From Candidatus Bathyarchaeota archaeon (GTDB taxonomy: Archaea; Thermoproteota; Bathyarchaeia; Bathyarchaeales; Bathycorpusculaceae), in NCBI GenBank assembly GCA_963828195.1, contig CAWHDT010000005.1, positions 320,001-384,000 of the forward strand: a stretch of 64,000 bases of DNA, read 5' to 3'. The notes under the pieces are model-generated. The model was not told the origin of the DNA, made no database searches, and worked only from the letters and a program-made list of their open reading frames with translations. A program made the position numbers and the translations under genes. Shown in pieces: positions 18,702 through 35,593 of the stretch. How positions within the stretch are numbered: the first letter of the stretch is position 1; each line of letters starts with the position of its first letter.

Positions 18702-19787
18702 TTAAGCTACGACTTCCGAAAGCCTGTTTTGCGTTGCCGCTTGTTTTATCTCCGTGGCTATGCGTCTGCCCATGTACATGTTTTCGCCGTATTTCAGGTA
18801 AGCGTAGGGTGAGGTGCCGATGCCCACGTTTGTCCCCGCAACTATGCGTGCGGAAATCTCGAAGGTGAAGATTTTCAAGTCATCAGTTATGACGGTTTCA
18901 AGGCAGAATGGTCCGATGATTCCGGGCGGCGCGAGTTCTTTGGCTTTCTTGTGCACACTGTCGCCCATACGCATCATTTCAGGAAGCAAAGATTCACGGA
19001 GCACAATGGGAAAGTTGCCGACCACAGTGTACGTTGGATTAACATCAATCTCCAGCTGTTCAGCTGCGGGAATTTTGCCGATTGAATCTACTGCTGATTC
19101 GTAGCGTCTATCCATCGCGAGCAACTCGACATCGTCGTTTAAAATTGAGCTGAAGTAGCTGGGGTAAACATTCACGCCTAACGCGTACTCCTGCAGGTGA
19201 ATACCCGCTAAATCCTCTTCTTTAAGCAATCCGCGTTTCACTAATTCATCGAATTTCTTGTGGAAGGCTTTGGGTGAATTTGCAAGGAAGTATCCTCTGC
19301 CGCCTTTGGCTCCGGGCAGTTTGGCGATGACTAAACGGTCAATATCCGCCGGGGTTTTGAAAGTGGCTGGCAGGCGCAGTCCTGCTTGGCGCAGCCATTC
19401 TTCTTGGGATTTGCGGTTGGCTTCCCAATGGAGCAGCTGGCGGTTTCCAAACATAGGCACCATAAGGCTGTCGGTTAATTCTTCAGTGCTCAGGTAAGCG
19501 GTGAACGACCCATGCGGAATCAAAATGACGTTTAGGCGTCGCAGTTTCTCCTGCATCTGTTCATTCAGAAGCTCCGTGAAGTCCTTGACCAGGATTAGTT
19601 CGTCAACAAGCGGGTACTTCTTGTACATTATCGCGTCTTTTTCTTTGCAAATGCACACTGTGCGGAATCCTTCTTCTCTCGCGCCTTTGAAAATGTTTAG
19701 GGAGCTATGAGAGCCCAAGGTGCCGATGGCTAGTTTTTTCTGGTCGTATTTCGCAACTATTTTGCCGATGTCCTTGGGAGTTATCAT
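18702..19787 (-). CDS. purP: FAICAR synthetase PurP (ATP-grasp)
   Basis: GSHSSLNI, IPHGSF, GAKGGRGYF, FEISARIVAGTN. Confidence 0.92.
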   Translation of the reverse strand: MITPKDIGKIVAKYDQKKLAIGTLGSHSSLNIFKGAREEGFRTVCICKEKDAIMYKKYPLVDELILVKDFTELLNEQMQEKLRRLNVILIPHGSFTAYLSTEELTDSLMVPMFGNRQLLHWEANRKSQEEWLRQAGLRLPATFKTPADIDRLVIAKLPGAKGGRGYFLANSPKAFHKKFDELVKRGLLKEEDLAGIHLQEYALGVNVYPSYFSSILNDDVELLAMDRRYESAVDSIGKIPAAEQLEIDVNPTYTVVGNFPIVLRESLLPEMMRMGDSVHKKAKELAPPGIIGPFCLETVITDDLKIFTFEISARIVAGTNVGIGTSPYAYLKYGENMYMGRRIATEIKQAATQNRLSEVVA

Positions 19788-20881
19788 GTCACCACTTCCG
19801 CAAGCCTGCCTTCTTTAACTGCACGTTTAACTTCCATTGCGACGCGCCTGCCTGGACCAACTTCCACCCCGTACTTGTACTTCATGTACGGCGACGTGGG
19901 TTCAACGCATGGGCATCCTGGCACACGGGGGCTAACATCGAAAACGTAGAACTCCAAATCCTTCGTGACGGCTCCTTGCAAAGCGAATAACCCGATCATT
20001 CCAGGCGGATACTCTTTTTTGCATGTCTCTACGAATTTTTCGGCTGCGTCAAAGATTTTTTCGATTTGGCTCTCCCGCATGGTTGCGCCCATGTGCCCGA
20101 TTTCGATGTTCTGCGTGGGAATGTTTAGCTCAAGCTGCTCCATAGCGGGCAAATCCAACACGCCGTCAAGATCTGTTTGGATACGTCTGTCAAAGCCTAA
20201 AAGATCGATTTCGTCTGTTAAAGGGGACCAGAACAGGTTAGCGTTAAATTTCGCCCCGACTATATACTCTTCTATCAGGGCGTTTTCCAGCCCTTCGCAA
20301 GTAATTATCCCCTGCATTATACGTCTCTGAGACATTTTCACGTACTCCTCAGGAGAAGAAGCAAAGAAAAAAGCGCGTTCAATCGCACGTTCTTTTTCGG
20401 GAACTTTCACGATTGCTAAACGGTCAATTTCTTCTGGTGACTCGAAGGTTTTAGGCGTCGCTATTCCAGCCTTCTGAAGCAGGTACAACTGGTTTCGCGG
20501 CGTGTTTCGTTCCTCTGTCCGCAGCATTGATCGGTTACCCATAAGGGGCACGGCGAACTGGTTCTCTATTGCTTCGTAGCCAGCGTAAACTGAGAATGAT
20601 CGGTTGGGAACAAAAACCGTGTTTAAATCAGCCAGTTTCTTGACGTTGGCGTCACTGGTTATTTCAGAGAATTTATCCAGCATAATTACGTGGTCAAAGA
20701 GGTTTTTGTAGTATTTCATGTAGGTTTTTTCTCTGCCTGTCTGGCAAACAACAACGGTTTCTAACCCCTCTTGCTTTGCGCCAGACGCTATCTCAAGCGC
20801 CGAGTGGGAACCCAAAACGCCAATGCGAATTTCTTTCGAATTGTATTTTTTTATTACTTGCTTAATTTCGTCCCCTAACAT
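19784..20881 (-). CDS. purP: PurP-like ATP-grasp paralogue
   Basis: GSHSALEI, VPNRSF, DRRIQTDLDG, DVSPRVPG. Confidence 0.85.
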   Translation of the reverse strand: MLGDEIKQVIKKYNSKEIRIGVLGSHSALEIASGAKQEGLETVVVCQTGREKTYMKYYKNLFDHVIMLDKFSEITSDANVKKLADLNTVFVPNRSFSVYAGYEAIENQFAVPLMGNRSMLRTEERNTPRNQLYLLQKAGIATPKTFESPEEIDRLAIVKVPEKERAIERAFFFASSPEEYVKMSQRRIMQGIITCEGLENALIEEYIVGAKFNANLFWSPLTDEIDLLGFDRRIQTDLDGVLDLPAMEQLELNIPTQNIEIGHMGATMRESQIEKIFDAAEKFVETCKKEYPPGMIGLFALQGAVTKDLEFYVFDVSPRVPGCPCVEPTSPYMKYKYGVEVGPGRRVAMEVKRAVKEGRLAEVVT

Positions 20882-20883
20882 GC

Positions 20884-21936
20884 TTATTCCTTCATGTATT
20901 TTCTGTATTTCGCAATTACCTCTGACAGCTCAGGGGCACCAAACATTTTGCGGTTTGTCATCGCGTTTGCCGCCGCCATGTACATCTCGCTGATGATTGT
21001 TTTAAGCTCGGGGTCAAGTTTCGGCGGCTGCGACTTGCACAGCGCTTTCCAATATTGGATGCCTTTAGCTTCAGCCTCTTTTTTCGCCGCCTCCAGATCC
21101 GTGTACCAGCGGGTTTTCTTGTAGAATTGACGCGCCACCTCTTTGCTGACATGCACGCCGCCGTAGGTGAACCTGCATTCGTCAAGGGTTCCGACTACGT
21201 CAACTATCATGAGTTGTCTTTTCTCGTCGAAGGCTAACTCGATTTTTCCATCCTCATTCTTGAGCCCAGCTTTCGCAGCAACTTCAGTTATGGTTTCGTC
21301 GGCTTTAAGCAAAATGGCTTTGACATCGGCTAGTTCTTGGTCGGTTAAACCCGCGATTTTCTGCGCTTCAGCCCACGTCACGTAACGGTCAGTTTCTTCA
21401 AGCTTCGTACTCACGTCAAAGATTGGCTTCGCCAAGTTTTCTCCTGGCTTTGGATAGTGTTCTAAGCCGAGGTCTTTTAGCGTTATTTTTCCCTGTTCAA
21501 GCCGTTTGAAAACTGAGGAGCCTTCGGGCAAGCCGTTTCGATAGATTATTTCAAGCGGGATTAGGCAGTTCTTCAATTTGGATGTGTAGATGCTGTAGTC
21601 ATGCAGGATTTTGCCGTTAACTACGCTTGTTTTTGGCTTGTAAACGTTAACTAAACTGACTTCCATGATGCTTGAGGGCTGCTTTAACCCGCTAAACTTG
21701 ACCGCTTTGCCGTCCGAGTCCACTAAGCCTCTATAGTGAGTCCTTACTCCTTTGCGCTCCAATTGTTCAAAACAGTACGCGCCCATAAGGCACAGAGCAG
21801 CGCCTTTGCCGTCGATTAAATCGGGCATTTCTCCCCAGTCAAAAACGCTGTAGCGGTCTGAAAAATGGAATCTGCCGACGCCCATTTGAGTCTGGGTGGG
21901 TTTCTTTGTTACTTCAAGGTCTTTGACGCTGCCCAT
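20884..21936 (-). CDS. purC: SAICAR synthase
   Basis: MGSVKDL, FSDRYSVFDWGEMPD, STKLE, DGKIE, DVVGTLDECRF. Confidence 0.95.
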   Translation of the reverse strand: MGSVKDLEVTKKPTQTQMGVGRFHFSDRYSVFDWGEMPDLIDGKGAALCLMGAYCFEQLERKGVRTHYRGLVDSDGKAVKFSGLKQPSSIMEVSLVNVYKPKTSVVNGKILHDYSIYTSKLKNCLIPLEIIYRNGLPEGSSVFKRLEQGKITLKDLGLEHYPKPGENLAKPIFDVSTKLEETDRYVTWAEAQKIAGLTDQELADVKAILLKADETITEVAAKAGLKNEDGKIELAFDEKRQLMIVDVVGTLDECRFTYGGVHVSKEVARQFYKKTRWYTDLEAAKKEAEAKGIQYWKALCKSQPPKLDPELKTIISEMYMAAANAMTNRKMFGAPELSEVIAKYRKYMKE

Positions 21937-22228: not shown

Positions 22229-22940
22229 TTAATTTGGCTTATCTCTCTGCTTTTTTATTCTTAGTATGATTGCTATAGAGAGTATTGAAAAGACTAAAAG
22301 CAAAATTACTAGCAATTCCAATTCTGGAACTGTAAGAATGGGTGAAGGAGAAGCTTGGTTAACTAAAAGGTTACGATTGCCTTCTACATTAATATATATT
22401 GGTTGGTTATTGGAACTTTGATCCCAATTTGCATTTGTCGCAAACAGTTGACCACCTTCGGGGTCATTGTCAGTTACGTCATAGGAAAGAACCCCATTAA
22501 ATTCAAGTTTCAAATTAGCAACTTCAGGTTTAAAGCTCATAGAGAGTGTTCCACTGCTATTTTTGGGGTGTTAAGGTAATTTCATAGTTGACTAAATTTT
22601 GTATAACTGAATTAACCGCAGACTCATTAAGCAAAATCGGGTACTCCAAAATATTGAACACAATAGAAAAACCATCGCTATTATAATATTGATTCAGGTA
22701 AGTTATTGATATCAACCAATCAGCTGTGTAAGTATTATTCTGAATCCAAACACCATTAGGGTCCGTCTGAATCGTCGTAGTAACGTCAAATGTACAAATA
22801 ATATTACTACTATCTGCCTCATAGATGTTGGTTTTTCCAAAATCTTCAGTTAAAGTCTGGCCATGAGCGGTCATAGCAATCTCTGAAAAAAGTAACAAGC
22901 ACATGATTGATAGAACAATTATCAATTTTGAAGAGATCAT
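22229..22940 (-). pseudogene. PEF-CTERM surface protein split by a 1-nt frameshift
   Basis: ORF 22557-22940 (signal peptide) and ORF 22229-22540 (VPEL, TM, basic tail) join as LTPQ-NSSGTLSMSFK if one A is removed from CCCCAAAAATAGC near 22560. Confidence 0.75.
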
Positions 22941-23024: not shown

Positions 23025-23129
23025 TTACTTCTTTGTTCGGCTTATTCTCCGCTTTTTTAGTCTCAGTATAAATGCAATGGATAGCATTGAAAGGAACAGG
23101 GGTAAAATGGCTATCAATGGAAACTCTGG
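23025..23129 (-). pseudogene. Orphan PEF-CTERM sorting-signal tail
   Basis: PEFPLIAILPLFLSMLSIAFILRLKKRRISRTKK* with no ectodomain upstream. Confidence 0.75.
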
Positions 23130-23159
23130 AAAAGGCAATAATACCCTAAAAGCATGGGA

Positions 23160-23284
23160 AAGTGTGCAAAATAACTGTGCAATAAGCACGGTAAAGTGTG
23201 CAATAACCGATTAACTGCTATTTCATGATAATATTCAGCATGGACTTATGGTAATATTTGCACACTTGTAATATTACCATGAAA
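23160..23284. repeat. Clustered direct and inverted repeats at the element's left end
   Basis: TGTGCAA three times direct (23163, 23177, 23197) plus one inverted; 11 bp inverted repeat ATGGTAATATT/AATATTACCAT (23248-23280) and a third related copy at 23225. Confidence 0.75.
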
Positions 23285-23881
23285 AAAACGAGTTAATAGT
23301 GATTTTTAGTGCTTTTCAGGTTTAAGGTTGTTAAATCACTGTATACAATGTATGCAGGGTTTTTTGGGGTTGTTTTAGTTAATTTTTGGGCTTTTTCTCC
23401 ATTGAAAAAGACGGTTAAAAGGCGGTGAATTAAAGGTGTAATTTTAAAACTCGGTGTGAATTATAAACTTGGTTTACAAACTAAAATTACTTAAGCGTAA
23501 CCTTTGGTAACTAGTTAATGGGAAAACATGCCCGTTTTTAACTAAAATTCACCGTTTTGTCTTTTATCGGTGAAAACATTATCTATTATCAATAGTTTGG
23601 TAATTATCGCATATTTTTATAGGGAAACTTGTAATTTTTACAAATAACCTTCTCTCCCAGAGAAAAAAGCCCGCGAGCGAACCCAAAAAAGAAATCACAA
23701 AAATCACACCTTGCTCTGCCTTCTAAAGTGGCTATAGCGCTTTGAGTTTTGAAACAATTACCGCTAGCCGTTTCTTAATGTTTTCAATGTAGGTGTTTAA
23801 GTGTAGAACAATATAGGTGGTTAGGTGTAAGAGTAGAAAGGCTTAAAAGCAGATAACAACAATATAGCACTCGTATTTGAG

Positions 23882-23950
23882 GATAGGGTTCCCGTCTACC
23901 ACTCAAGGCGGGAGGCATTGGAAGAGAGAGGTTCCTTCTATGCCTTTATC
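23882..23950 (+). ncRNA. Candidate structured leader RNA (three-way junction)
   Basis: P1 GAUAGG/UUUAUC, P2 UCCCGUCU/AGGCGGGA, P3 GGCAU-GGAAG/CUUCU-AUGCC; lies between a TATA-like CTTAAAAG (~23842) and the RHH gene. Confidence 0.5.
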
Positions 23951-23972
23951 GTAACAAAGGAAGTCGGTCAAT

Positions 23973-24116
23973 GTGGGAAAAATCAACCTTGTAGTTTCTG
24001 ACGAATTAGAAAAACAATTCCGAGAAGCAGTTTTTAAAAAATATGGAATGAAACGCGGCAACATAACGAAAGCCACTGACGAAGCTCTGCAAGATTGGAT
24101 AAAAAAGACCGCTTGA
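23973..24116 (+). CDS. 47 aa ribbon-helix-helix protein (absent from the ORF track)
   Basis: GTG start; MGKINLVVSDELEKQFREAVFKKYGMKRGNITKATDEALQDWIKKTA. Confidence 0.8.
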   Translation: MGKINLVVSDELEKQFREAVFKKYGMKRGNITKATDEALQDWIKKTA

Positions 24117-24230
24117 TTTTTCCCTACTTTTCCCCTTATTTTTGTGTGGAAAACATATTTAAGCAGTAACTTTAGCGTTTGCCGTAACTCTGACTCCTAA
24201 AAGGAGAAAACAAAATGCCTATATTTAGTT

Positions 24231-24434
24231 TTGTTTTTGAGCGCTCGGGGAACTTGCACGGCAAGAATGAACCTGAAACGGTTCGACCCCGACAACCCAT
24301 TAAACCAAAAACAGTACAGCCCAGAAAAGATAGCACAGCTTAAGCGGATGAAGGAAAAACAGGAAGGCGGTCAAAGATGGAAAAACCGACCGTGCTATGA
24401 GCATTGGTCTATCGACCATCGCCAAACCGATTAG
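24231..24434 (+). CDS. Small basic hypothetical protein
   Basis: 67 aa ORF downstream of the RHH gene; start uncertain. Confidence 0.35.
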   Translation: MFLSARGTCTARMNLKRFDPDNPLNQKQYSPEKIAQLKRMKEKQEGGQRWKNRPCYEHWSIDHRQTD

Positions 24435-24455
24435 CCAAAAGATTGTTTTGTGCGC

Positions 24456-25226
24456 TCACACAATACTTTTTCGCCTTTTTCCCAAAACATCCTCAGATTC
24501 TTCTTTGGTTAACAGTTGAAAGTTGCTTTTGCCTTCTTTCAAAACTTTATTGAATACATTTTCGAGCTGTTGAATTTTGTCTTTCCCGAATGCTTTCTCA
24601 AGTGATTTTTTCATGTCAGTTAGAGCGGGTTCCGCTGTTTTGTCTTTGGCTAACGATTTAGAGGGATTTTGATATTCAAAGAGGACTTTAAAGTATTCGT
24701 CATCGCTGAGCGTTCTTGTTTTCGTCATTTCACTAATTATGCTGTGTGCGATTGGTCGTCTTACGAATGCTTGAGCGCCTCCTTGCTGTGTGACGTAAAA
24801 CGCGGGGATCTCCATAAGAGCGTTATGTCCGTCTTTTGCCGCGATAAATGCAGAGTACAAGGAGAGAGCACCTAACCATAGGCTAAGTTCCTTGAAAAGC
24901 TCTTCTTTTGGTCGTTCGCTTCCAAATTTTGTTAGGTTCTCATTGATAAGATTAAGCAGTTCAAGCTTGAGAATTGTTTCTTCCCACATCTCTTTAGGCA
25001 TGTTTTTTGGATTAAGACGATACCGTAAGTCTTTGTAGGCTTTTCTATCCGTCTCTAAGATTCCGTCTTTAGTCATTTTCTTAAGCAAACGAAAAATTGT
25101 CGATTCTGATATGCCTTCTTTTTTTGCTTTTTTTAGTACTTCCGATGCTTTGAGCCATTGCTGAGAAATAAAAATCGCGATGAGCTTTTTCTCTTTTTCT
25201 TTCGCCGAAGAATCAACGCGAGACGT
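24456..25226 (-). CDS. Winged-helix repressor-like protein
   Basis: Frame stays open 46 codons upstream of the tracked TTG and contains ASEVLKKAKKEGISESTIFRLLKKMTKDGIL; SD AAGGAGG precedes an ACG at 25226. Confidence 0.7.
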   Translation of the reverse strand, partial: TSRVDSSAKEKEKKLIAIFISQQWLKASEVLKKAKKEGISESTIFRLLKKMTKDGILETDRKAYKDLRYRLNPKNMPKEMWEETILKLELLNLINENLTKFGSERPKEELFKELSLWLGALSLYSAFIAAKDGHNALMEIPAFYVTQQGGAQAFVRRPIAHSIISEMTKTRTLSDDEYFKVLFEYQNPSKSLAKDKTAEPALTDMKKSLEKAFGKDKIQQLENVFNKVLKEGKSNFQLLTKEESEDVLGKRRKSIV

Positions 25227-25337
25227 CCTATTTCCTCCTTATTTGATAGCAATACTTGACAGAAATCGTTTATAAGCTTTACTGCTTATTGGTGTAATAA
25301 TTACTATCAGTTAGGAGTAATTCCGAGAAAGGTAGTA

Positions 25338-25544
25338 TTGGAGAGAGAAAAGAAAATGGACAAAAAACCGAGTTTCCAAATGGATGCACCAACCCTAAAA
25401 CTTGTTGATGAAACAGCCGAGAAAATAGGCATCTCCCGTTCTGACTTTTTCAGAATGGCAGTCAAAGAAAAACTCTTTCGTCTTGGCGTTCTTCAACAAG
25501 AACAAAGCCTAAGCGTCAATAGCCACATGAGCGGAGGTGCTTAA
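25338..25544 (+). CDS. CopG/ribbon-helix-helix regulator
   Basis: PSFQMDAPTLKLVDETAEKIGISRSDFFRMAVKEKL. Confidence 0.85.
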   Translation: MEREKKMDKKPSFQMDAPTLKLVDETAEKIGISRSDFFRMAVKEKLFRLGVLQQEQSLSVNSHMSGGA

Positions 25545-25919
25545 ATGTCGCAGAAAGAAACAAAAAAAACTGAGCCGCTATCAATCCAACTCCAAGCCAT
25601 AAATATTATGATAAAAGCCTCTGAACATAACGGCATCTTTGATTCAGGTTTTAGTCTCCCTGACTTAGCTCAAAACGCAGAATACCGAGGCATGAAAGGA
25701 GAACAACTTTGGACAGCAGAAATGCTTGAAAAAGTAATAACCCGATTCCGACAACACATCGCCACACATCAGACCGAACCAAAAGACATAGACGCGCTCC
25801 TGACATTGCTATCCACAAAAATTAACGTCAACATCGACCGTATCCGCAGATGCTTTTACGGAATCCCAGAGCCAGCTTCCGAAACTGTCAACCTCTTTCC
25901 AACAGAAGAAACCGAATAA
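25545..25919 (+). CDS. Hypothetical protein
   Basis: 124 aa, SD GGAGGT, abuts the RHH stop codon. Confidence 0.7.
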   Translation: MSQKETKKTEPLSIQLQAINIMIKASEHNGIFDSGFSLPDLAQNAEYRGMKGEQLWTAEMLEKVITRFRQHIATHQTEPKDIDALLTLLSTKINVNIDRIRRCFYGIPEPASETVNLFPTEETE

Positions 25920-25945
25920 ACCAATTCTAAGGAGAAAAAGCCAAA

Positions 25946-26020
25946 ATGTCCGAAAAAACACAAAAAATCTTAGAAATCGCCGCTTTTCTCATAGTGGCGG
26001 TTTTAAGCCTAATCCTATAG
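25946..26020 (+). CDS. 24 aa hydrophobic micro-peptide
   Basis: MSEKTQKILEIAAFLIVAVLSLIL*, AAGGAG upstream. Confidence 0.5.
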   Translation: MSEKTQKILEIAAFLIVAVLSLIL

Positions 26021-26034
26021 AAAAAATCAACGCT

Positions 26035-26265
26035 GTGAATATGATGTCTATAACCTCGCCGTCAAAACTAAGTAAATCTGTTACTGACAACGTTCTAAAG
26101 CAGATGGAAGAAAAAGCAATAGCTTACATCGGAGCTAATAAAAAGGTCGTAATCATCGCGGTCGCTGTAATCTTAGCCTTAATCGTTCTCTATCTGTTGA
26201 CACGTCAACCAAAGCCTAACGCTGAATTTTTATCTTCATTGGGGAAAATAAACGAGCATTCTTAG
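26035..26265 (+). CDS. Small single-TM protein
   Basis: KKVVIIAVAVILALIVLYLL helix. Confidence 0.6.
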   Translation: MNMMSITSPSKLSKSVTDNVLKQMEEKAIAYIGANKKVVIIAVAVILALIVLYLLTRQPKPNAEFLSSLGKINEHS

Positions 26266-26269
26266 GAAG

Positions 26270-27820
26270 GTGTCATTTACGAGTAACCGTCAACTTGCAA
26301 GCCCAAAGACAAGGCATGGCGAAATAAAAACACCTGAAAAAGTTAGCGCTTTATTTAGCCGCTTGAAAAAAGACAAGCCAGAGCCAGCCAACCCCGAAAC
26401 AAACCCGTGGAAGCTGAAACCCTTTAAAGGCATAATTCGCGGGGAATTTCACCAGAGCAGTTTACAACACGACCAAGAAGTAGAAATCCGTAACGGTATG
26501 CAGTACGCGGACTACCTGAACATATCAAAAAGGCAATTCCTCTATTTGATTTACGCCGATTTTCCCAATGGTGCGCCAACAAGCTCACGAACTCTTGCCG
26601 ATGCAAAAGTTGCTGAATACAACAAAACGCTATGCCATCAATATCTCGCTAAGCACTATCAGAACCCCGTAACAGGTGAATGGACAGACGCGGGTAAGAT
26701 GGTTGATGCAAGAGGTCGATACTTATACATGAAATTTGGACAACGTGACCCCGCACTTTTCAGCTTGGAAGATTTTCAAGAAGCAAAGAAAGACGCATCC
26801 TTTTATGACGAGCAAGGGAAACTTAAGTTTTCGCCGCTGTCTCAGCTTCGATGCATTATGCAGTTTACGGCTTTACAGGTTGAGGACTCACCACTATCTC
26901 GAAGGCGTTTTCAATTCGTGGAAGGCGACGAGTGGGATACAACAGGAAAAAAGAAAATAGGCGGTAAAAAAGACGACTATCTCCAAGAGCAAGAGCTAAA
27001 AATTTACGTGGAAAACATCAATGAACCCGACACGCTCGTTCTGCACCGATTAGGCTTAGAAGGCGGGGGGAGAATAAGCAGTGAATTACTTATGGGGCAA
27101 AAACTACTAAATGGCTATCTTTGTCAGGCTTTTTGGGATTTGAATTGCTTAAGCATGTTCGAGCCAAAAGTTGAAGGCAGTAAGACGGGCGGGAAAGTAA
27201 AGAGGTACTTTGCACCTGAAACGATGGCATTTTTCCAGCGGTACGTTACTGACTTCAATATAAAAGGTGCATGGTTTACGCGCTACCCATCAGAGGAACA
27301 CAACTATACAAGCTATGAGAGCAGTCTAAAATCGGCGGGTTATCGAGCAGGGCTTTGGCGTTTTAAGAAGGCTCAGAAGGGGCAAGAACTCGCAGACGGG
27401 GAAAAATTAGCCGCTAATGGACAAGTCTATAGATTAAAAGCAGTTAACAACAACCAAAAAGGCACACAGGACTTTGAAAAACAATGGTTAACCGAGGGCA
27501 AAATGACAACAAGCCACACGGTAATGAAACATACATTCGTGAGTCTCGCAGGACTTCATGGCTTGAGCTTAGACGATTGCGCAGAACAATGCGGAACAGA
27601 CCCAACAACCATACGAGACTTCTATCATGGCACCTTAGGCGACAAACTCCGCTCAGTAATCTTAGGCGAAAAAACATATGAACCGTGGAAAGATTGGATA
27701 ACCCGCTTTGTTGAACCATTATACACCAAGCGCTATAGCGAACTGATAAGCCAAAGTAAGATTGTTGTTGACTTAAAAGCAATCGCCCAAGAAGAGGCAG
27801 AAATGGCAGAGGTTGCGTAA
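26270..27820 (+). CDS. Divergent tyrosine recombinase/integrase
   Basis: YLQEQEL, LGLEGGGRISSELL (Arg), EPKV (Lys), SHTVMKHTFVS, QCGT...TIRDFY (Tyr). Confidence 0.8.
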   Translation: MSFTSNRQLASPKTRHGEIKTPEKVSALFSRLKKDKPEPANPETNPWKLKPFKGIIRGEFHQSSLQHDQEVEIRNGMQYADYLNISKRQFLYLIYADFPNGAPTSSRTLADAKVAEYNKTLCHQYLAKHYQNPVTGEWTDAGKMVDARGRYLYMKFGQRDPALFSLEDFQEAKKDASFYDEQGKLKFSPLSQLRCIMQFTALQVEDSPLSRRRFQFVEGDEWDTTGKKKIGGKKDDYLQEQELKIYVENINEPDTLVLHRLGLEGGGRISSELLMGQKLLNGYLCQAFWDLNCLSMFEPKVEGSKTGGKVKRYFAPETMAFFQRYVTDFNIKGAWFTRYPSEEHNYTSYESSLKSAGYRAGLWRFKKAQKGQELADGEKLAANGQVYRLKAVNNNQKGTQDFEKQWLTEGKMTTSHTVMKHTFVSLAGLHGLSLDDCAEQCGTDPTTIRDFYHGTLGDKLRSVILGEKTYEPWKDWITRFVEPLYTKRYSELISQSKIVVDLKAIAQEEAEMAEVA

Positions 27821-27823
27821 AAA

Positions 27824-28471
27824 TTGACGGCAAGAAGCATCAGATTAAGCGCTGACGAAGAGACTAAAGAGAGCGAAATCTTCGCCTTTTATGGTGTACA
27901 AGGCGAAACCTACAGCGAGCAATACCGCGATTTCATAGTAAAGATCCATAAAGCAATGCGCTTAGACGTAGTGATAGAAACACCCGATAATCCCGCTGTA
28001 CATCCCGCGCCAAACATTACCGTTATGCGCTGTCCATTACGCAAAACTCTTACAGTCGCACACAAAGACAAGAAAACTGGCGCTATCCTTTGGAGCGAGA
28101 AAAAACTCATATGCGTAAACAACCCACCACAAAAGACCTTTCTTGATGGCTCAGAAATATGCGAAGTATGCTTAGCGAAATTTTACGGTTTAGCAAAGAA
28201 ACTACGCGCCGCTAATCCTGACAGTTTGTCAGCACCGAAACAGAAGTCACAGCAAGAAGAAACGCCGATAACACAGCCAATAGACATCCCAGCCGCCACA
28301 CGTCAGCTTTTCTTAGCTCATTATGACGGTAAGAAACATTGCCCTTTCAGTGGTGACCGCATTTTAAGCCAAACTTGCTATGTATGCAGTACGCAAAACT
28401 CTAAACGCTGGAATGAATGCCGAGTGCTTGTCATGTCGATTATAACACCGCAAAAGGCAACAGCAAACTAA
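27824..28471 (+). CDS. Cys-rich hypothetical protein
   Basis: Two Cys clusters including CEVC and CYVC. Confidence 0.7.
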   Translation: MTARSIRLSADEETKESEIFAFYGVQGETYSEQYRDFIVKIHKAMRLDVVIETPDNPAVHPAPNITVMRCPLRKTLTVAHKDKKTGAILWSEKKLICVNNPPQKTFLDGSEICEVCLAKFYGLAKKLRAANPDSLSAPKQKSQQEETPITQPIDIPAATRQLFLAHYDGKKHCPFSGDRILSQTCYVCSTQNSKRWNECRVLVMSIITPQKATAN

Positions 28472-28495
28472 GCCTTCCTTTTTTTAAACCAATAG

Positions 28496-29125
28496 GTGAG
28501 ACGAATGGTAACTACCAAAAAATCTGATAAAAAAGCTAAATTGCTCAATGCAGACCTTGACCTTGAATATTTTGAAATATTGGAAAGGGTTATTGCAGAC
28601 CAAAATCTTAACGGTAGACGAGAAGGTTTAGCCGTTATTTTTAAAGGCTATCTGAAGTCATGTAATCCCTCTGCCGCTGAACATGAACCTACTATTTGCG
28701 AGTTCCTTTCCGACGATAAAACTCTTTGTTGCAAAAATAAGGATAAAATCAAAAAAACAACGATTAAAGAATGCAAAGGCTGTCAGAAAACGCAAGAAGT
28801 CGTCGCAAGAAACCAACGTATGGAAGAGCTAAGATTTCATGGAGAACTTTTAAGACATGATTTGACTGAGCAAATGTGGATTTTTGAACTTGGCATTCCC
28901 TTTGAAAAAACAGGGTATGACACTTTTAACCGTTTGCTTTTCCTCAAAGAAAAACTCGACCAAAAAGAAAGGGAAATTGCAAAGCTTTTGCCGCTCGAAA
29001 TCGAAAACGCTTCCCTAAAACAACAACTAAGCGAAAAAGCAATGGAAATACAGACTTTGAAAGCTGAAAACGCTAAGCAAGAAACCACAATCAATGACTA
29101 TATGTTTCAGAGGAAACCCCAATGA
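28496..29125 (+). CDS. Hypothetical protein: RHH-like N-terminus, Cys cluster, coiled coil
   Basis: CEFL..LCC..CKGC followed by a heptad-rich C-terminus. Confidence 0.7.
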   Translation: MRRMVTTKKSDKKAKLLNADLDLEYFEILERVIADQNLNGRREGLAVIFKGYLKSCNPSAAEHEPTICEFLSDDKTLCCKNKDKIKKTTIKECKGCQKTQEVVARNQRMEELRFHGELLRHDLTEQMWIFELGIPFEKTGYDTFNRLLFLKEKLDQKEREIAKLLPLEIENASLKQQLSEKAMEIQTLKAENAKQETTINDYMFQRKPQ

Positions 29126-30012
29126 AATATCTGCTTTTGGTTCCCATCCGTAACAGTGCTCACCTTCTACCGTTCTTTTTCCAATCGCTTAGAAGCATGA
29201 ACCCAAAACCTGACTATATCGTTTGGTGCACCAATAACAACACCGATAAGACTGTTCAAAAACTGAAAGCTTTCCGCGATATTCCCTCAGAAATCATTGA
29301 ATTGCCCGACTTTCCGAAAGACTTCATCAAGCAGAAAGGAGTTTTTGAGGCGATAAGCATCGTTCGTCAGCGCCTTTGGGAGCGTGCGCGAGAACTTAAT
29401 AGCGAATGGACTTTTATGTGTGACTCAGACCATTTTGTTGTTTCATCTGACATCTTGGAAATACTGAGCACTTGGAACGTGGATTTTGTTGTAACGCCTC
29501 AAATGCGCTTTGTAGAAAATGCACAGAAAAAGGGAGAGTACGCAATAATTTTAACTGCATGGCTGCTTGAAAATGGCAATTGGTGCCGTGTTTTTTCAGA
29601 CTTTTATACTCACGCATTAATTCCCCATCAGCTATTTGTTTGCCGCTCCACTCTAACGCCGCAAAGACCACTCCTTGTTCCTAACATGGCTGTGGCTTAC
29701 GGATTTTATTGCTTTAGCCGTCGCCTTGTTCAAGATTGCCGTTTAAATTGGCATCCGCTCTCAGATTCCACAGCAACTAAAGACCTTCCAATCGGTGAAT
29801 TCCTCGTACTTGCCAGAAACGGGTTAGTCGGCAAAAATGGCATGATTGGTGAGGATATGCAATTTGCTCTGAGTGCGCGAAGGCTTGGTTACATAATACA
29901 TATGGATGGAATAGCCGTTATCGACCATGTGTGCTATGACGAAAAAATTAGCGGAATTAAGGCGTGGGATTTCAACATGAATGCTTTTGTGCCTTCTCAA
30001 AGTATGCGGTAA
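29122..30012 (+). CDS. GT-A fold glycosyltransferase (GT2/Anp1-like)
   Basis: LLVPIRNS, NNNTDKT, CDSD (DxD), GEDMQF..ARRLGY. Confidence 0.85.
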   Translation: MKYLLLVPIRNSAHLLPFFFQSLRSMNPKPDYIVWCTNNNTDKTVQKLKAFRDIPSEIIELPDFPKDFIKQKGVFEAISIVRQRLWERARELNSEWTFMCDSDHFVVSSDILEILSTWNVDFVVTPQMRFVENAQKKGEYAIILTAWLLENGNWCRVFSDFYTHALIPHQLFVCRSTLTPQRPLLVPNMAVAYGFYCFSRRLVQDCRLNWHPLSDSTATKDLPIGEFLVLARNGLVGKNGMIGEDMQFALSARRLGYIIHMDGIAVIDHVCYDEKISGIKAWDFNMNAFVPSQSMR

Positions 30013-30104
30013 GAGCTATTATGACATTTCAACTACAAGAAACGCCTTTTTGGGGTCAATTTACGGCTAAAGTTTTTTAAACCAATCAACCCCTATTTTA
30101 TGTT

Positions 30105-30413
30105 ATGAGTGCTGACGAAAAAGACATTGTTTTTATGGTTAGCTCTGCGTGTAGTGGTTGCGGCTCTTACCTTAGAGCGTACAGTAAAGATTCGCGACTA
30201 ACTCGCTGTTTTGATTGCGGAGCAAGAAAGCCTCATCCAAATATTTTATCCGTTTTCCAATACGAGGAAGAAATGGTCGGCGAGTCAAAAGAACACGGAA
30301 CAATTTTTCAAAATCGTAGACGATGCAAGGAATGTGGTTCTAATAAGTATTTTTACATCATGGAGAACGGTGTTGAAAAACAACGGTGTGATGAATGTGA
30401 GGATTTATTTTAA
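30105..30413 (+). CDS. Double zinc-ribbon protein
   Basis: CSGC/CFDC and CKEC/CDEC. Confidence 0.75.
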   Translation: MSADEKDIVFMVSSACSGCGSYLRAYSKDSRLTRCFDCGARKPHPNILSVFQYEEEMVGESKEHGTIFQNRRRCKECGSNKYFYIMENGVEKQRCDECEDLF

Positions 30414-30431
30414 AAAATGAGGGGATACCCT

Positions 30432-30563
30432 TTAAGCCCTGCGGGGCACTTCATTAGAGTGCTTTTGGTTTAGAAAGTGTTCACCCCGACGCAAAAGAAC
30501 GGTTGTAATTGTCACAATCGCAAAGATGCTTAGAATTGCAAGTGTGCAATTAGGCACTTCTGG
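30432..30563 (-). pseudogene. Second orphan PEF-like sorting-signal tail
   Basis: PEVPNCTLAILSIFAIVTITTVLLRRG...*. Confidence 0.5.
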
Positions 30564-30611
30564 ATTCTCCAAATCTTTCTCGATGCATTTATCCAAGCAC
30601 TTCACCCAACA

Positions 30612-32381: not shown

Positions 32382-32778
32382 AATGAATATTCAAAATAAA
32401 TGATAACAAAATTTATGAAACGATGTGAAAAACCTGAAGAACAACTGCAACCTTCAACTCTCAGGCTTGCCCTAAAATGGGTAGAGTCTTAACAGCTAAC
32501 TCAAACGAAATTTTTCGACAAAACTAGCTCGGTTTGCTACCGTTGGGATTGCCAAAGACCAATGGATGATCAAGCGGAAGTCTCCCTTTTTTATGAGAAA
32601 AACGAACCAGGGCATAGAAAAATGGCCTGGCGAAGTTGTTTCGGTGAATTTAGCGGCATTACCTCCGAACTCCTTTTTTACAACATTGCCTTGAATGAAA
32701 TACTTCCAGTGATAAATATGATAAAAATTTATTTCATGCTAACAATAAGGCTGCCAAATGATTCACTATTCATAATTA

Positions 32779-32816
32779 TTCTTAATATTTGTGAACATTT
32801 CTCAAATCGTTTTATA
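32779..32816 (+). promoter_or_regulatory. Island promoter motif copy 3
   Basis: TTCTTAA-TAT-TTGTGAACATTTCTCAA-N5-TTTATA; near-identical inverted copy at 35231-35271. Confidence 0.7.
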
Positions 32817-32869
32817 TTCTTATCCTAACACTCAGATTTCAGAGCAAACAAAAAATAGGATGAAATGGC

Positions 32870-35230: not shown

Positions 35231-35271
35231 TTATATAAGGTGATTTGAGAAATGTTCATAAATATTAAGAA
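35231..35271 (-). promoter_or_regulatory. Island promoter motif copy 4 (upstream of cobQ)
   Basis: Minus strand TTCTTAA-TAT-TTATGAACATTTCTCAA then TTATATA. Confidence 0.7.
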
Positions 35272-35593
35272 TAGTTAAACGATCAAACACCATTTTAAAG
35301 ATTATTTGAATCAACATCTATGTTGCCTGCAACAATTCCCTATCCGACTTGACTTCTCTTGTTGAGAAAAAAATAGGAAAAGTCATAAGGCAATAAGCAA
35401 ATGTAGCTAAAAACATAGTTGTGCATAGTTTGACTAAGGATACTGGTTTCTTAAATCATTTTTCAAAACCTGAACGTGATGTAAATGTTTTCTTTTCCGG
35501 TAAAACTATCTTTAACGGTAATGCTTTTTTCATTTTTAATCAGTATAACTTTTGGAAGAAAACTAGAGTTTTTTTAAAAAAGAAAAGGGGGGA

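Follow-up and report, generated by a model that had tools for sequence, protein, structure and literature searches.

Can a tyrosine recombinase serve as an integrase when one of its catalytic arginines has become a lysine and its His/Trp position is empty? The question is raised by a 516-aa reading frame in a 64,000-nucleotide stretch of contig CAWHDT010000005.1 (positions 320,001 to 384,000 of the forward strand, assembly GCA_963828195.1) of a Candidatus Bathyarchaeota archaeon, here called the window, whose numbering is used throughout. The frame lies within a mobile element of 7,440 bp (23125-30564, including both 6-bp TCTGGA cores). An earlier reading of the letters alone, the sequence-only reading, had proposed a tyrosine recombinase with a non-canonical catalytic signature, either a new subfamily or a recombinase fold repurposed as a resolvase or DNA-binding protein. 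We think it probable that the gene encodes an active tyrosine integrase whose active site has been remodelled and whose targeting is relaxed and multi-site, a view drawn from sequence comparison and structure modelling in which catalysis is predicted only. The coordinates of all features are collected in Table 1.

The integrase family and its altered active site

The first arginine (Arg-I), the lysine and the tyrosine are where the sequence-only reading placed them, at GGGRISS (R268), EPKV (K300) and IRDFY (Y452). Together with the glutamate E298 they are invariant in all 107 relatives of an alignment made from proteins of at least 330 aa, with shorter proteins (<330 aa) excluded. The search for close homologues found 47 proteins (29-80% identical), of which two bear the name Bathyarchaeia, and every one of the 14 genome loci of close homologues is from Bathyarchaeia; a wider search gave 84 matches. 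In the close set, 48 of 48 proteins have the same residues at R268, E298, K300, H416, K420, H421, G442, T443 and Y452.

The claimed lysine in place of the second arginine (Arg-II) is present, in the string H416-T-V-M-K420-H421, and is typical of the whole family: the Arg-II column holds Lys in 103 of the 107 relatives and Arg in three, with one unassigned, which puts the family outside the canonical definition at this position. In the portions of Gibb et al. (PMC2943603) available to us, to which all our statements from that paper are limited, Arg-II is given as 99.1% Arg and 0.5% Lys across more than 12,000 natural sequences. The His-II column is His in 103 relatives, Tyr in three and Lys in one. 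The extra residue that had been counted between His and Lys is present in the 516-aa protein but is not fixed in the family, the box reading HxxxK in 62 relatives, HxxK in 41 and YxxR in three (one unassigned). The nearest three Arg-bearing relatives read YxLRHT...GGW, so that Arg and GGW occur together, and they form one branch with 100% support in a quick tree.

The box nearest the tyrosine is more difficult. C441-G442-T443 is present as described, while its interpretation as Thr in place of His/Trp depends on the register. At Tyr-9, Thr is found in 104 of the 107 relatives; at Tyr-10, Gly is found in 94, His in four and Trp in two. Thr at Tyr-9 matches the His position of two canonical host integrases, but in two of the three Arg/Trp relatives nearest to the family it is Tyr-10 that holds Trp, and there the family has Gly or His, so the His/Trp-III residue (92% His and 4% Trp in PMC2943603) may have been deleted or replaced by Gly. 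As aligned, the His/Trp side chain is absent whichever of the two registers holds. A third departure, overlooked in the earlier reading, is at Arg-I+3, where Glu/Asp is replaced by Ser (78 of 107), Ala (21) or Gly (8), a loss common to the Arg/Trp outgroup as well. Arg-II+4 (V424) is Val in 94 relatives and Ile in six, and Ala in all three Arg/Trp relatives. According to Gibb et al. (PMC2943603) the His/Trp residue mainly buttresses the tyrosine helix, and where the His/Trp region is small, a bigger side chain at Arg-II+4 can make up for it; the bulk of V424 may compensate for the missing side chain in this way, which is a fit and no proof.

To the explanation that this copy is a decayed ordinary integrase we attach practically no probability. 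It could draw on the Pfam, NCBIfam and PHROG scans of the 516-aa protein, which gave no match, and on the start codon, since the ATG of most homologues is ACG (26279-26281) here and in one relative, L009. An upstream GTG nevertheless opens an intact frame, and the close homologues, canonical copies of which would have pointed to decay, carry the same altered signature, as do 103 of the 107 wider relatives. PF00589 matches only two of 48 family members, and a PDB sequence search with the integrase found only 3nkh (E 0.044). The dN/dS ratio is 0.08 against the second copy in the same genome (contig C7) and 0.05 against L004, three further pairs being saturated at synonymous sites. An invariant signature with a low dN/dS indicates a lineage trait under purifying selection; on this comparative evidence the altered active site is a trait of the lineage and not a product of chance or decay. 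The proposed new subfamily has thus gained substance, with more than 100 proteins sharing the Lys-for-Arg signature, and we are reasonably confident that the integrase is real, conserved and probably catalytic. The divergent winged-helix-like open reading frame (ORF) of the element also has an ACG behind GGAGG, and the ACG codons of both genes are possibly weak starts.

Fold and domain structure

The predicted fold is that of a tyrosine recombinase, as the sequence-only reading needed (model pLDDT 85.7). Foldseek matched XerA and the integron integrase IntI (E 1.6e-4 and 3.9e-4) and also XerH. In structural alignment (VIA) the top places went to recombinases at Z 16.0 (2a3v, rmsd 3.7 over 262 aligned residues, in agreement with the catalytic-domain fold), 15.3 (5hxy) and 15.2 (4a8e). 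The integrase thus shares the core-binding and the catalytic fold of the archaeal tyrosine integrases, XerA and the pNOB8- and SSV1-type enzymes, among whose structures 5hxy, 4a8e and 3vcf (Z 9.6) were matched.

Lower in the same list stand topoisomerase IB (Z 10.4) and the protelomerases TelA and TelK (Z 8.2 and 6.5), and Lys at Arg-II could favour covalent intermediates (PMC2943603); both points would suit a resolvase, protelomerase or topoisomerase-like enzyme that serves an extrachromosomal form and does not integrate. We regard such an enzyme as very unlikely. Recombinases outrank these proteins over both domains (Z 15-16, with the protelomerases at 8.2 or less), no replication gene was recognised among the window's ORFs or the scanned ORFs of the elements, and all complete copies are integrated with cores. 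The precise 6-bp cores at many unrelated sites, the fact that this is the only recombinase found on the elements, and the invariant Tyr, Arg-I and Lys likewise disfavour the repurposing as a resolvase or DNA-binding protein that had been offered as the alternative to a new subfamily.

The N-terminal region, which the earlier reading put at about 235 aa and could not assign, now divides into a core-binding domain (aa ~110-230) and a probable helix-turn-helix (HTH) domain (aa ~15-100). Folded alone, aa 15-118 gave weak matches, mostly to HTH, Myb and homeodomain entries (Z up to 3.6), and Foldseek with the N-terminal domain returned nothing at E<=0.001; shorter relatives have an evident HTH-like motif in this region. 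Atlas leads for a three-stranded arm-binding domain reached 0.88, under the bar of 0.9, and our own model has mainly three helices with weak HTH matches. The domain would bind the repeats at the element ends. The insertion before the His box, claimed at about 45 aa, measures ~45-47 aa, with 59 residues from the G357 column to His-II vs. 12 in 32 short relatives; it is present in the clade having these element ends and missing from most distant relatives.

The element, its ends and its relatives

The element ends and the target had both escaped the sequence-only reading. Comparison of loci reveals a left boundary that is sharp in 13 aligned ends, with the repeat array inside it, and a right boundary to match it. 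In ten complete elements, 7.0-12.6 kb long, the core is identical at both ends, TCTGGA in eight and TCCAGA in two (L002 and L005, in reverse orientation), giving direct repeats of only 6-8 bp, and the neighbours differ at every insertion site. A tRNA target was rejected, there being none at 15 of 15 loci. In keeping with the role of the integrase, no second recombinase, transposase or relaxase was found among the window's own ORFs or among 53 scanned ORFs selected from the 119 listed for elements and flanks, apart from one Cas1 on the L001 element.

Short repeats of this kind might also arise by a transposition-like route, in which the 6 bp would be a target-site duplication and not an overlap shared by circle and target. 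The TCCAGA at both ends of L002 and L005, where the repeat would follow the target, is in keeping with such a route, as are the shortness of the repeats and the fact that no circle was seen (in contigs only, at low depth). Strand exchange by tyrosine recombinases, however, involves no gap filling. Being nearly palindromic, a TC-NN-GA overlap could have its orientation flipped within a lineage, and L002 and L005 share other genes; moreover, the replacement tail described below starts in the core, which fits a core that is part of the element. Duplication of the target therefore strikes us as rather unlikely.

The window's genome contains a second autonomous copy on C7, with an integrase 79% identical in protein sequence, a 1.1-kb mini-element (C5:163222-164319) and a right end on C2 (C2:26988-27700). 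Relatives contain three more integrase-less mini-elements, of 746-904 bp and with short passengers (L062, L066 and L074), bringing the minis to four, all with the ends of the complete elements and at unrelated sites without a tRNA. The passenger of L066 is homologous to the gene adjoining the C2 right end. Across 332 genomes of the host's family, a close integrase homologue was found in 14 and the right-end pattern in 18 (24 matches, vs. 4 for a reversed control); 8 of 13 other integrase carriers show the strict right-end pattern.

One 12.6-kb element (L012:287-12881) is a provirus with a P2-like double-jelly-roll capsid (score 0.97). Its integrase, 48% identical to that of the window, pairs in this one case with CCCCGCAA repeats at both ends instead of TGTGCAA. 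A related double-jelly-roll provirus of Bathyarchaeia (L013:265-11443, PM2 P2-like capsid) has an integrase of the same family; element ends were looked for in it and not found. The GGGGATACCC motif of the window, with its GC-rich stretch (30421-30460), occurs in L013 as well and is a possible origin or binding site. The word 'jelly' does not occur in the text of the Bathyarchaeia virus paper, and the viral contigs searched yielded no integrase relative and no left end. At C9:2189 of the window's genome there is an L012-type right end with a tail-like frame; no capsid gene was matched in that genome, and the end is probably a relic. In another genome (G119), 137 bp of right end are 98% identical at two different flanks (L053 and L071), one having the core TATGGA, through either a recent duplication or an assembly artefact.

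Target sites and the replacement tail

On the opposite strand the core reads TCCAGA and overlaps Pro-Glu codons. A PEF-type C-terminal sorting tail is split at 7 of 20 distinct left junctions (8 of 20 when the C7 copy and L052 are taken separately and L002/L048 counted once), vs. 56 of 1,639 genomic core sites. These tails follow Pro/Thr/Ser linkers at the C-terminus, occur in many copies, and consist of motif, transmembrane segment and basic cluster, which is the tripartite definition of a sorting signal in the accessible part of 10.1101/2023.06.07.544157. They share the layout of the PEF-CTERM (TIGR03024) and PEFG-CTERM (TIGR04296) signals and score below both curated cut-offs (at best 20.5 vs. 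23, and 16.3 vs. 25, respectively). A regular expression found 29 candidate tails in the genome, 13 of them with TCCAGA, and two genes of the PF09721 sortase family, of the archaeosortase/exosortase type, score over the cut-off. In five cases (C7, L001, L006, L009 and L011) the element is bordered on the right by a Pro/Thr/Ser linker and on the left by the tail that naturally belongs to that linker. In relatives whose genes are uninterrupted, TCCAGA occurs at the tail site and also at an N-terminal PSVPEFT site, the latter hit in reverse by L005.

The right end of the element reads in frame as a new tail, PE-x-x-(Y/N)C followed by a helix and basic residues. This tail is undamaged in 8 of 9 cases where it is fused in frame to a long reading frame that ends in a linker, vs. 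6 of 16 other junctions (Fisher p 0.033, a value that is overstated because the junctions come from related genomes and are not independent). Four loose own-genome right-end matches, one of them the end of a mini-element, were left out of this test; including them gives 8 of 9 vs. 6 of 20 (p 0.005). Since the right end supplies a new tail, the surface protein probably keeps its anchor after insertion. An 80-bp stretch of PEFP-tail DNA in the left host flank of the C7 copy (L042:4248-4326) is 84-92% identical at several loci in many species, which is at least the identity of the neighbouring core gene (at most 86%); gene conversion or shuffling is possible.

The excess of tails need not come from the enzyme. 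An active integrase might see little beyond TCCAGAR, the tails being where insertions survived thanks to the replacement tail. This would agree with the weak host-side consensus beyond the core, with the many junctions outside tails and with a replacement tail that is mostly kept when fused; in addition, tails make up 24 of 169 genomic TCCAGARYT sites, a background closer to the 7 of 20 observed. It agrees less well with the G/A-T-T-T-C that tends to follow the core at non-tail junctions too, or with the N-terminal PSVPEFT sites, hit in reverse, where the replacement tail cannot rescue. We put this account, which concerns targeting only, at a little short of an even chance.

At the window's own site the two flanks derive from different genes, a displaced sorting tail on the left and the 5' half of a small zinc-ribbon gene on the right. 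The zinc-ribbon gene is intact twice in the genome G004, there also with PEF codons; its 3' half was not found in the window's genome. The simplest account of the mismatch would be loss of the DNA between two Pro-Glu sites, through the integrase or through recombination between two copies. Near-identical contigs from two runs span the left junction. Nearby, at 22229-22940, two adjacent minus-strand ORFs resemble one split secreted gene with a PEL tail, which has 73% DNA similarity to the displaced tail.

Activity of the integrase and a proposed mechanism

A number of observations weigh against an active integrase with relaxed targeting. Cre R292K is defective in ligation, and the consulted section of PMC2943603 does not list Thr with the replacements of Trp315 that are active. 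No exact empty allele was recovered for any single insertion, although paralogous targets without an insertion were. No circle or excision joint was found end-to-end in four runs, and five metagenome left-end loci are all host junctions without a circle joint, though with contigs only and low depth the missing joint carries no weight as absence. More than half of the junctions lie outside tails, the tail bias may owe much to survival instead of enzyme preference, the p value leans on related genomes, and the window's element has mismatched flanks. The host genome has five other PF00589 matches, tyrosine recombinases that could act in trans. One element, L001, carries the Cas1. Finally, the role of the distant relatives L046, L047 and L043 (Lys-for-Arg recombinases of 417-427 aa), whose elements also encode a canonical-looking integrase, may differ, for which reason our conclusions are limited to the clade with these ends. 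Two of these three are near tRNA-His.

The alteration of three of the seven canonical active-site positions (conservation table of PMC2943603), the five other host recombinases and the canonical-looking neighbours of the distant relatives would all suit a catalytically weak or dead DNA-binding accessory, with another host tyrosine recombinase moving the ends in trans. So would two further facts: among 17 other genomes in which a right end occurs, 9 have no full match to a close integrase, and the recombinase-fold repressors MrpR, YopR and SroF are in the fold lists. The genomes with ends only are, however, partly explained by mini-elements and incomplete assemblies. Tyr, Arg-I and Lys are kept by all 107 relatives, Arg-II is replaced only by Lys, the sole substitution that Cre tolerates well (PMC2943603), and in L012 the end motif changes along with the integrase. 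An accessory role is in our judgement quite unlikely.

For an active integrase we would propose the following. Tyr452 would attack the phosphate, with Arg268, Lys300 and His416 in their usual roles, Lys420 substituting for Arg-II and Val424 perhaps occupying the room that His/Trp would otherwise take up. The N-terminal HTH would hold the repeats inside the element ends. The element would excise as a circle and recombine, using TCTGGA/TCCAGA as a 6-bp overlap, with one or another of the numerous TCCAGAR sites in the chromosome. Such sites are common in Pro-Glu-Phe codons, above all where the multi-copy C-terminal sorting signals begin. An insertion at that point would cut off the anchor, and the right end would supply in-frame Pro-Glu, a transmembrane segment and a basic tail. 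The integrase-less mini-elements would be moved in trans. A more ambitious version makes the system a dedicated surface-protein editing device, in which a remodelled, mismatch-tolerant integrase swaps anchors, provides a tail that contains Cys, mobilises mini-cassettes of a single gene and removes the DNA that lies between Pro-Glu sites; this we find doubtful. Were it true, the 84-92% DNA identity of paralogous tail segments across species would represent shuffling.

Comparison with known systems

The family fits a relaxed-specificity tyrosine integrase and fails the definitions of the canonical, pNOB8, SSV1 and XerA types. As the sequence-only reading had stated in its background, the known archaeal variants keep the second arginine: the available part of PMC8371274 lists archaeal integrases only as KxxR and YxxR variants, all with Arg-II. 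The pNOB8-type (YxxR) and SSV1-type (KxxR) enzymes thus differ from the HxxxK of the window. SSV1-type integration also places the att site inside the integrase gene, whereas the window's gene is intact, with cores 3.1 kb upstream and 2.7 kb downstream. XerA is a near-universal chromosomal gene that acts at one dif site; the present family, in 14 of 332 genomes and at many unrelated sites, is not XerA.

Cre R292K, active in vivo and in vitro, accumulates covalent intermediate, and both it and vaccinia TopIB R223K keep moderate activity with Lys at Arg-II (PMC2943603). Those enzymes are engineered, whereas the Lys described here is natural and fixed in 103 proteins, with His/Trp-III missing as well. 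A natural, active family with a displaced catalytic residue is known from the CTnDOT-type integrases (PMC8138268, in the part available); IntDOT relocates Arg-I, whereas in the window's family Arg-I stays in place and the changes affect Arg-II and His/Trp-III.

Tn916/Tn1549-type elements and the eukaryotic Cryptons and Starships are tyrosine-recombinase elements that use many sites and have short repeats. As the mechanisms of Tn916 and Cryptons are generally understood, the window's integrase would work alike, with relaxed specificity, and Tn1549 Int aligns with it at Z 13.4. Unlike Tn916/Tn1549, the window's element has the same core at both ends and no conjugation genes found; its N-terminal domain looks more like an HTH than like the three-stranded arm-binding fold, and its target is DNA coding for sorting signals. 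The thaumarchaeal NitEve-E2 has a short att in the 3' end of a protein gene, the frame being restored by element DNA (PMC6563490, accessible part). There 8 nt and a stop codon are replaced in one gene, whereas here it is a whole sorting/anchor domain of 30-45 aa in a multi-copy gene set.

Literature searches found no description of the integrase family or its target, supplements and most subscription journals being outside their scope, and the available portions of PMC10541130, PMC11162782, PMC11697101, PMC13573593 and PMC11529989 do not describe the family, the target or the virus. The family would offer more than 100 natural proteins of one lineage that have Lys for the most conserved catalytic Arg and an empty His/Trp position; what these two residues contribute could be tested directly in an enzyme that has evolved to do without them. 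The use of repeated sorting-signal codons as a multi-copy landing site, with the anchor replaced on arrival, would be an integration strategy for which we found no description. Without a Pfam, NCBIfam or PHROG match, such elements, including the double-jelly-roll provirus, would escape standard integrase scans. Archaeal genetics could gain a tool in an integrase that has a 6-bp core and moves mini-elements of one gene.

Gene content and other features of the window

Table 1. Features of the integrase, the element and its insertion site (window coordinates)
Feature	Position	Strand	Remarks
Displaced host C-terminal sorting tail: PEFP + hydrophobic helix + basic cluster, 34 aa + stop	23025..23129	-	TIGR04296 PEFG-CTERM E 0.0056, 16.3 bits, cut-off 25
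Left core TCTGGA, left boundary	23125..23130	+	
Left end, conserved repeat array: TGTGCAA-type motifs at 23161, 23174, 23195; inverted copy at 23258	23131..23270	+	13 aligned left ends
Divergent winged-helix-like ORF, open frame to ~25226	24456..25088	-	FUR-like E 4e-4, under cut-off
Ribbon-helix-helix (CopG) regulator	25338..25544	+	PF01402, over cut-off
124-aa protein, shared with related elements (family 11)	25545..25919	+	
Small protein with hydrophobic segment, directly upstream of integrase	26035..26265	+	
Tyrosine integrase, 516 aa, GTG start	26270..27820	+	R268-K300-H416-K420-(no His/Trp)-Y452 active site
N-terminal domain, aa ~15-100: three helices with beta insertion, probable HTH	26312..26569	+	pLDDT 80; best Z 3.3-3.6, weak
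Core-binding domain, aa ~110-230	26597..26959	+	Full-length recombinases align from residue ~110-120; isolated core-binding domains Z 4.6-5.5
Catalytic domain, aa ~232-470	26963..27679	+	3nkh Z 14.4, rmsd 3.2, 180 aligned; 5c6k Z 13.8; 1aih Z 13.7
Codon starts	R268 27071, K300 27167, H416 27515, K420 27527, G442 27593, T443 27596, Y452 27623	+	
Basic, beta-rich insertion of ~47 aa before His-II	27353..27493	+	Modelled confidently as beta strands
215-aa Cys-rich protein, also in L011	27824..28471	+	
209-aa conserved element gene (family 3)	28496..29125	+	
Glycosyltransferase family 2-like cargo gene	29122..30012	+	E 3e-5, under cut-off
Zinc-ribbon protein	30105..30413	+	E 2e-4, under cut-off
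GGGGATACCC motif	30421..30430	+	137-159 bp inside right end, 6 of 10 complete elements
Element-encoded replacement tail: PEVP + hydrophobic helix + basic residues, 43 aa + stop	30432..30563	-	No NCBIfam match
Single right-end copy of TGTGCAAT repeat motif	30541..30550	+	
Right core TCTGGA, right boundary	30559..30564	+	
5' half of small host zinc-ribbon gene, cut at Pro-Glu codons	30565..30620	-	

The cargo of the related element L001 includes the Cas1 gene mentioned above and a fragment of a type ISP restriction-modification system (L001:15786-16841 and 19412-21055). Outside the element, the window has a 45-bp inverted repeat (89%; 32773-32817 and 35233-35277) flanking a cobQ-like region, with a related copy on contig C8.

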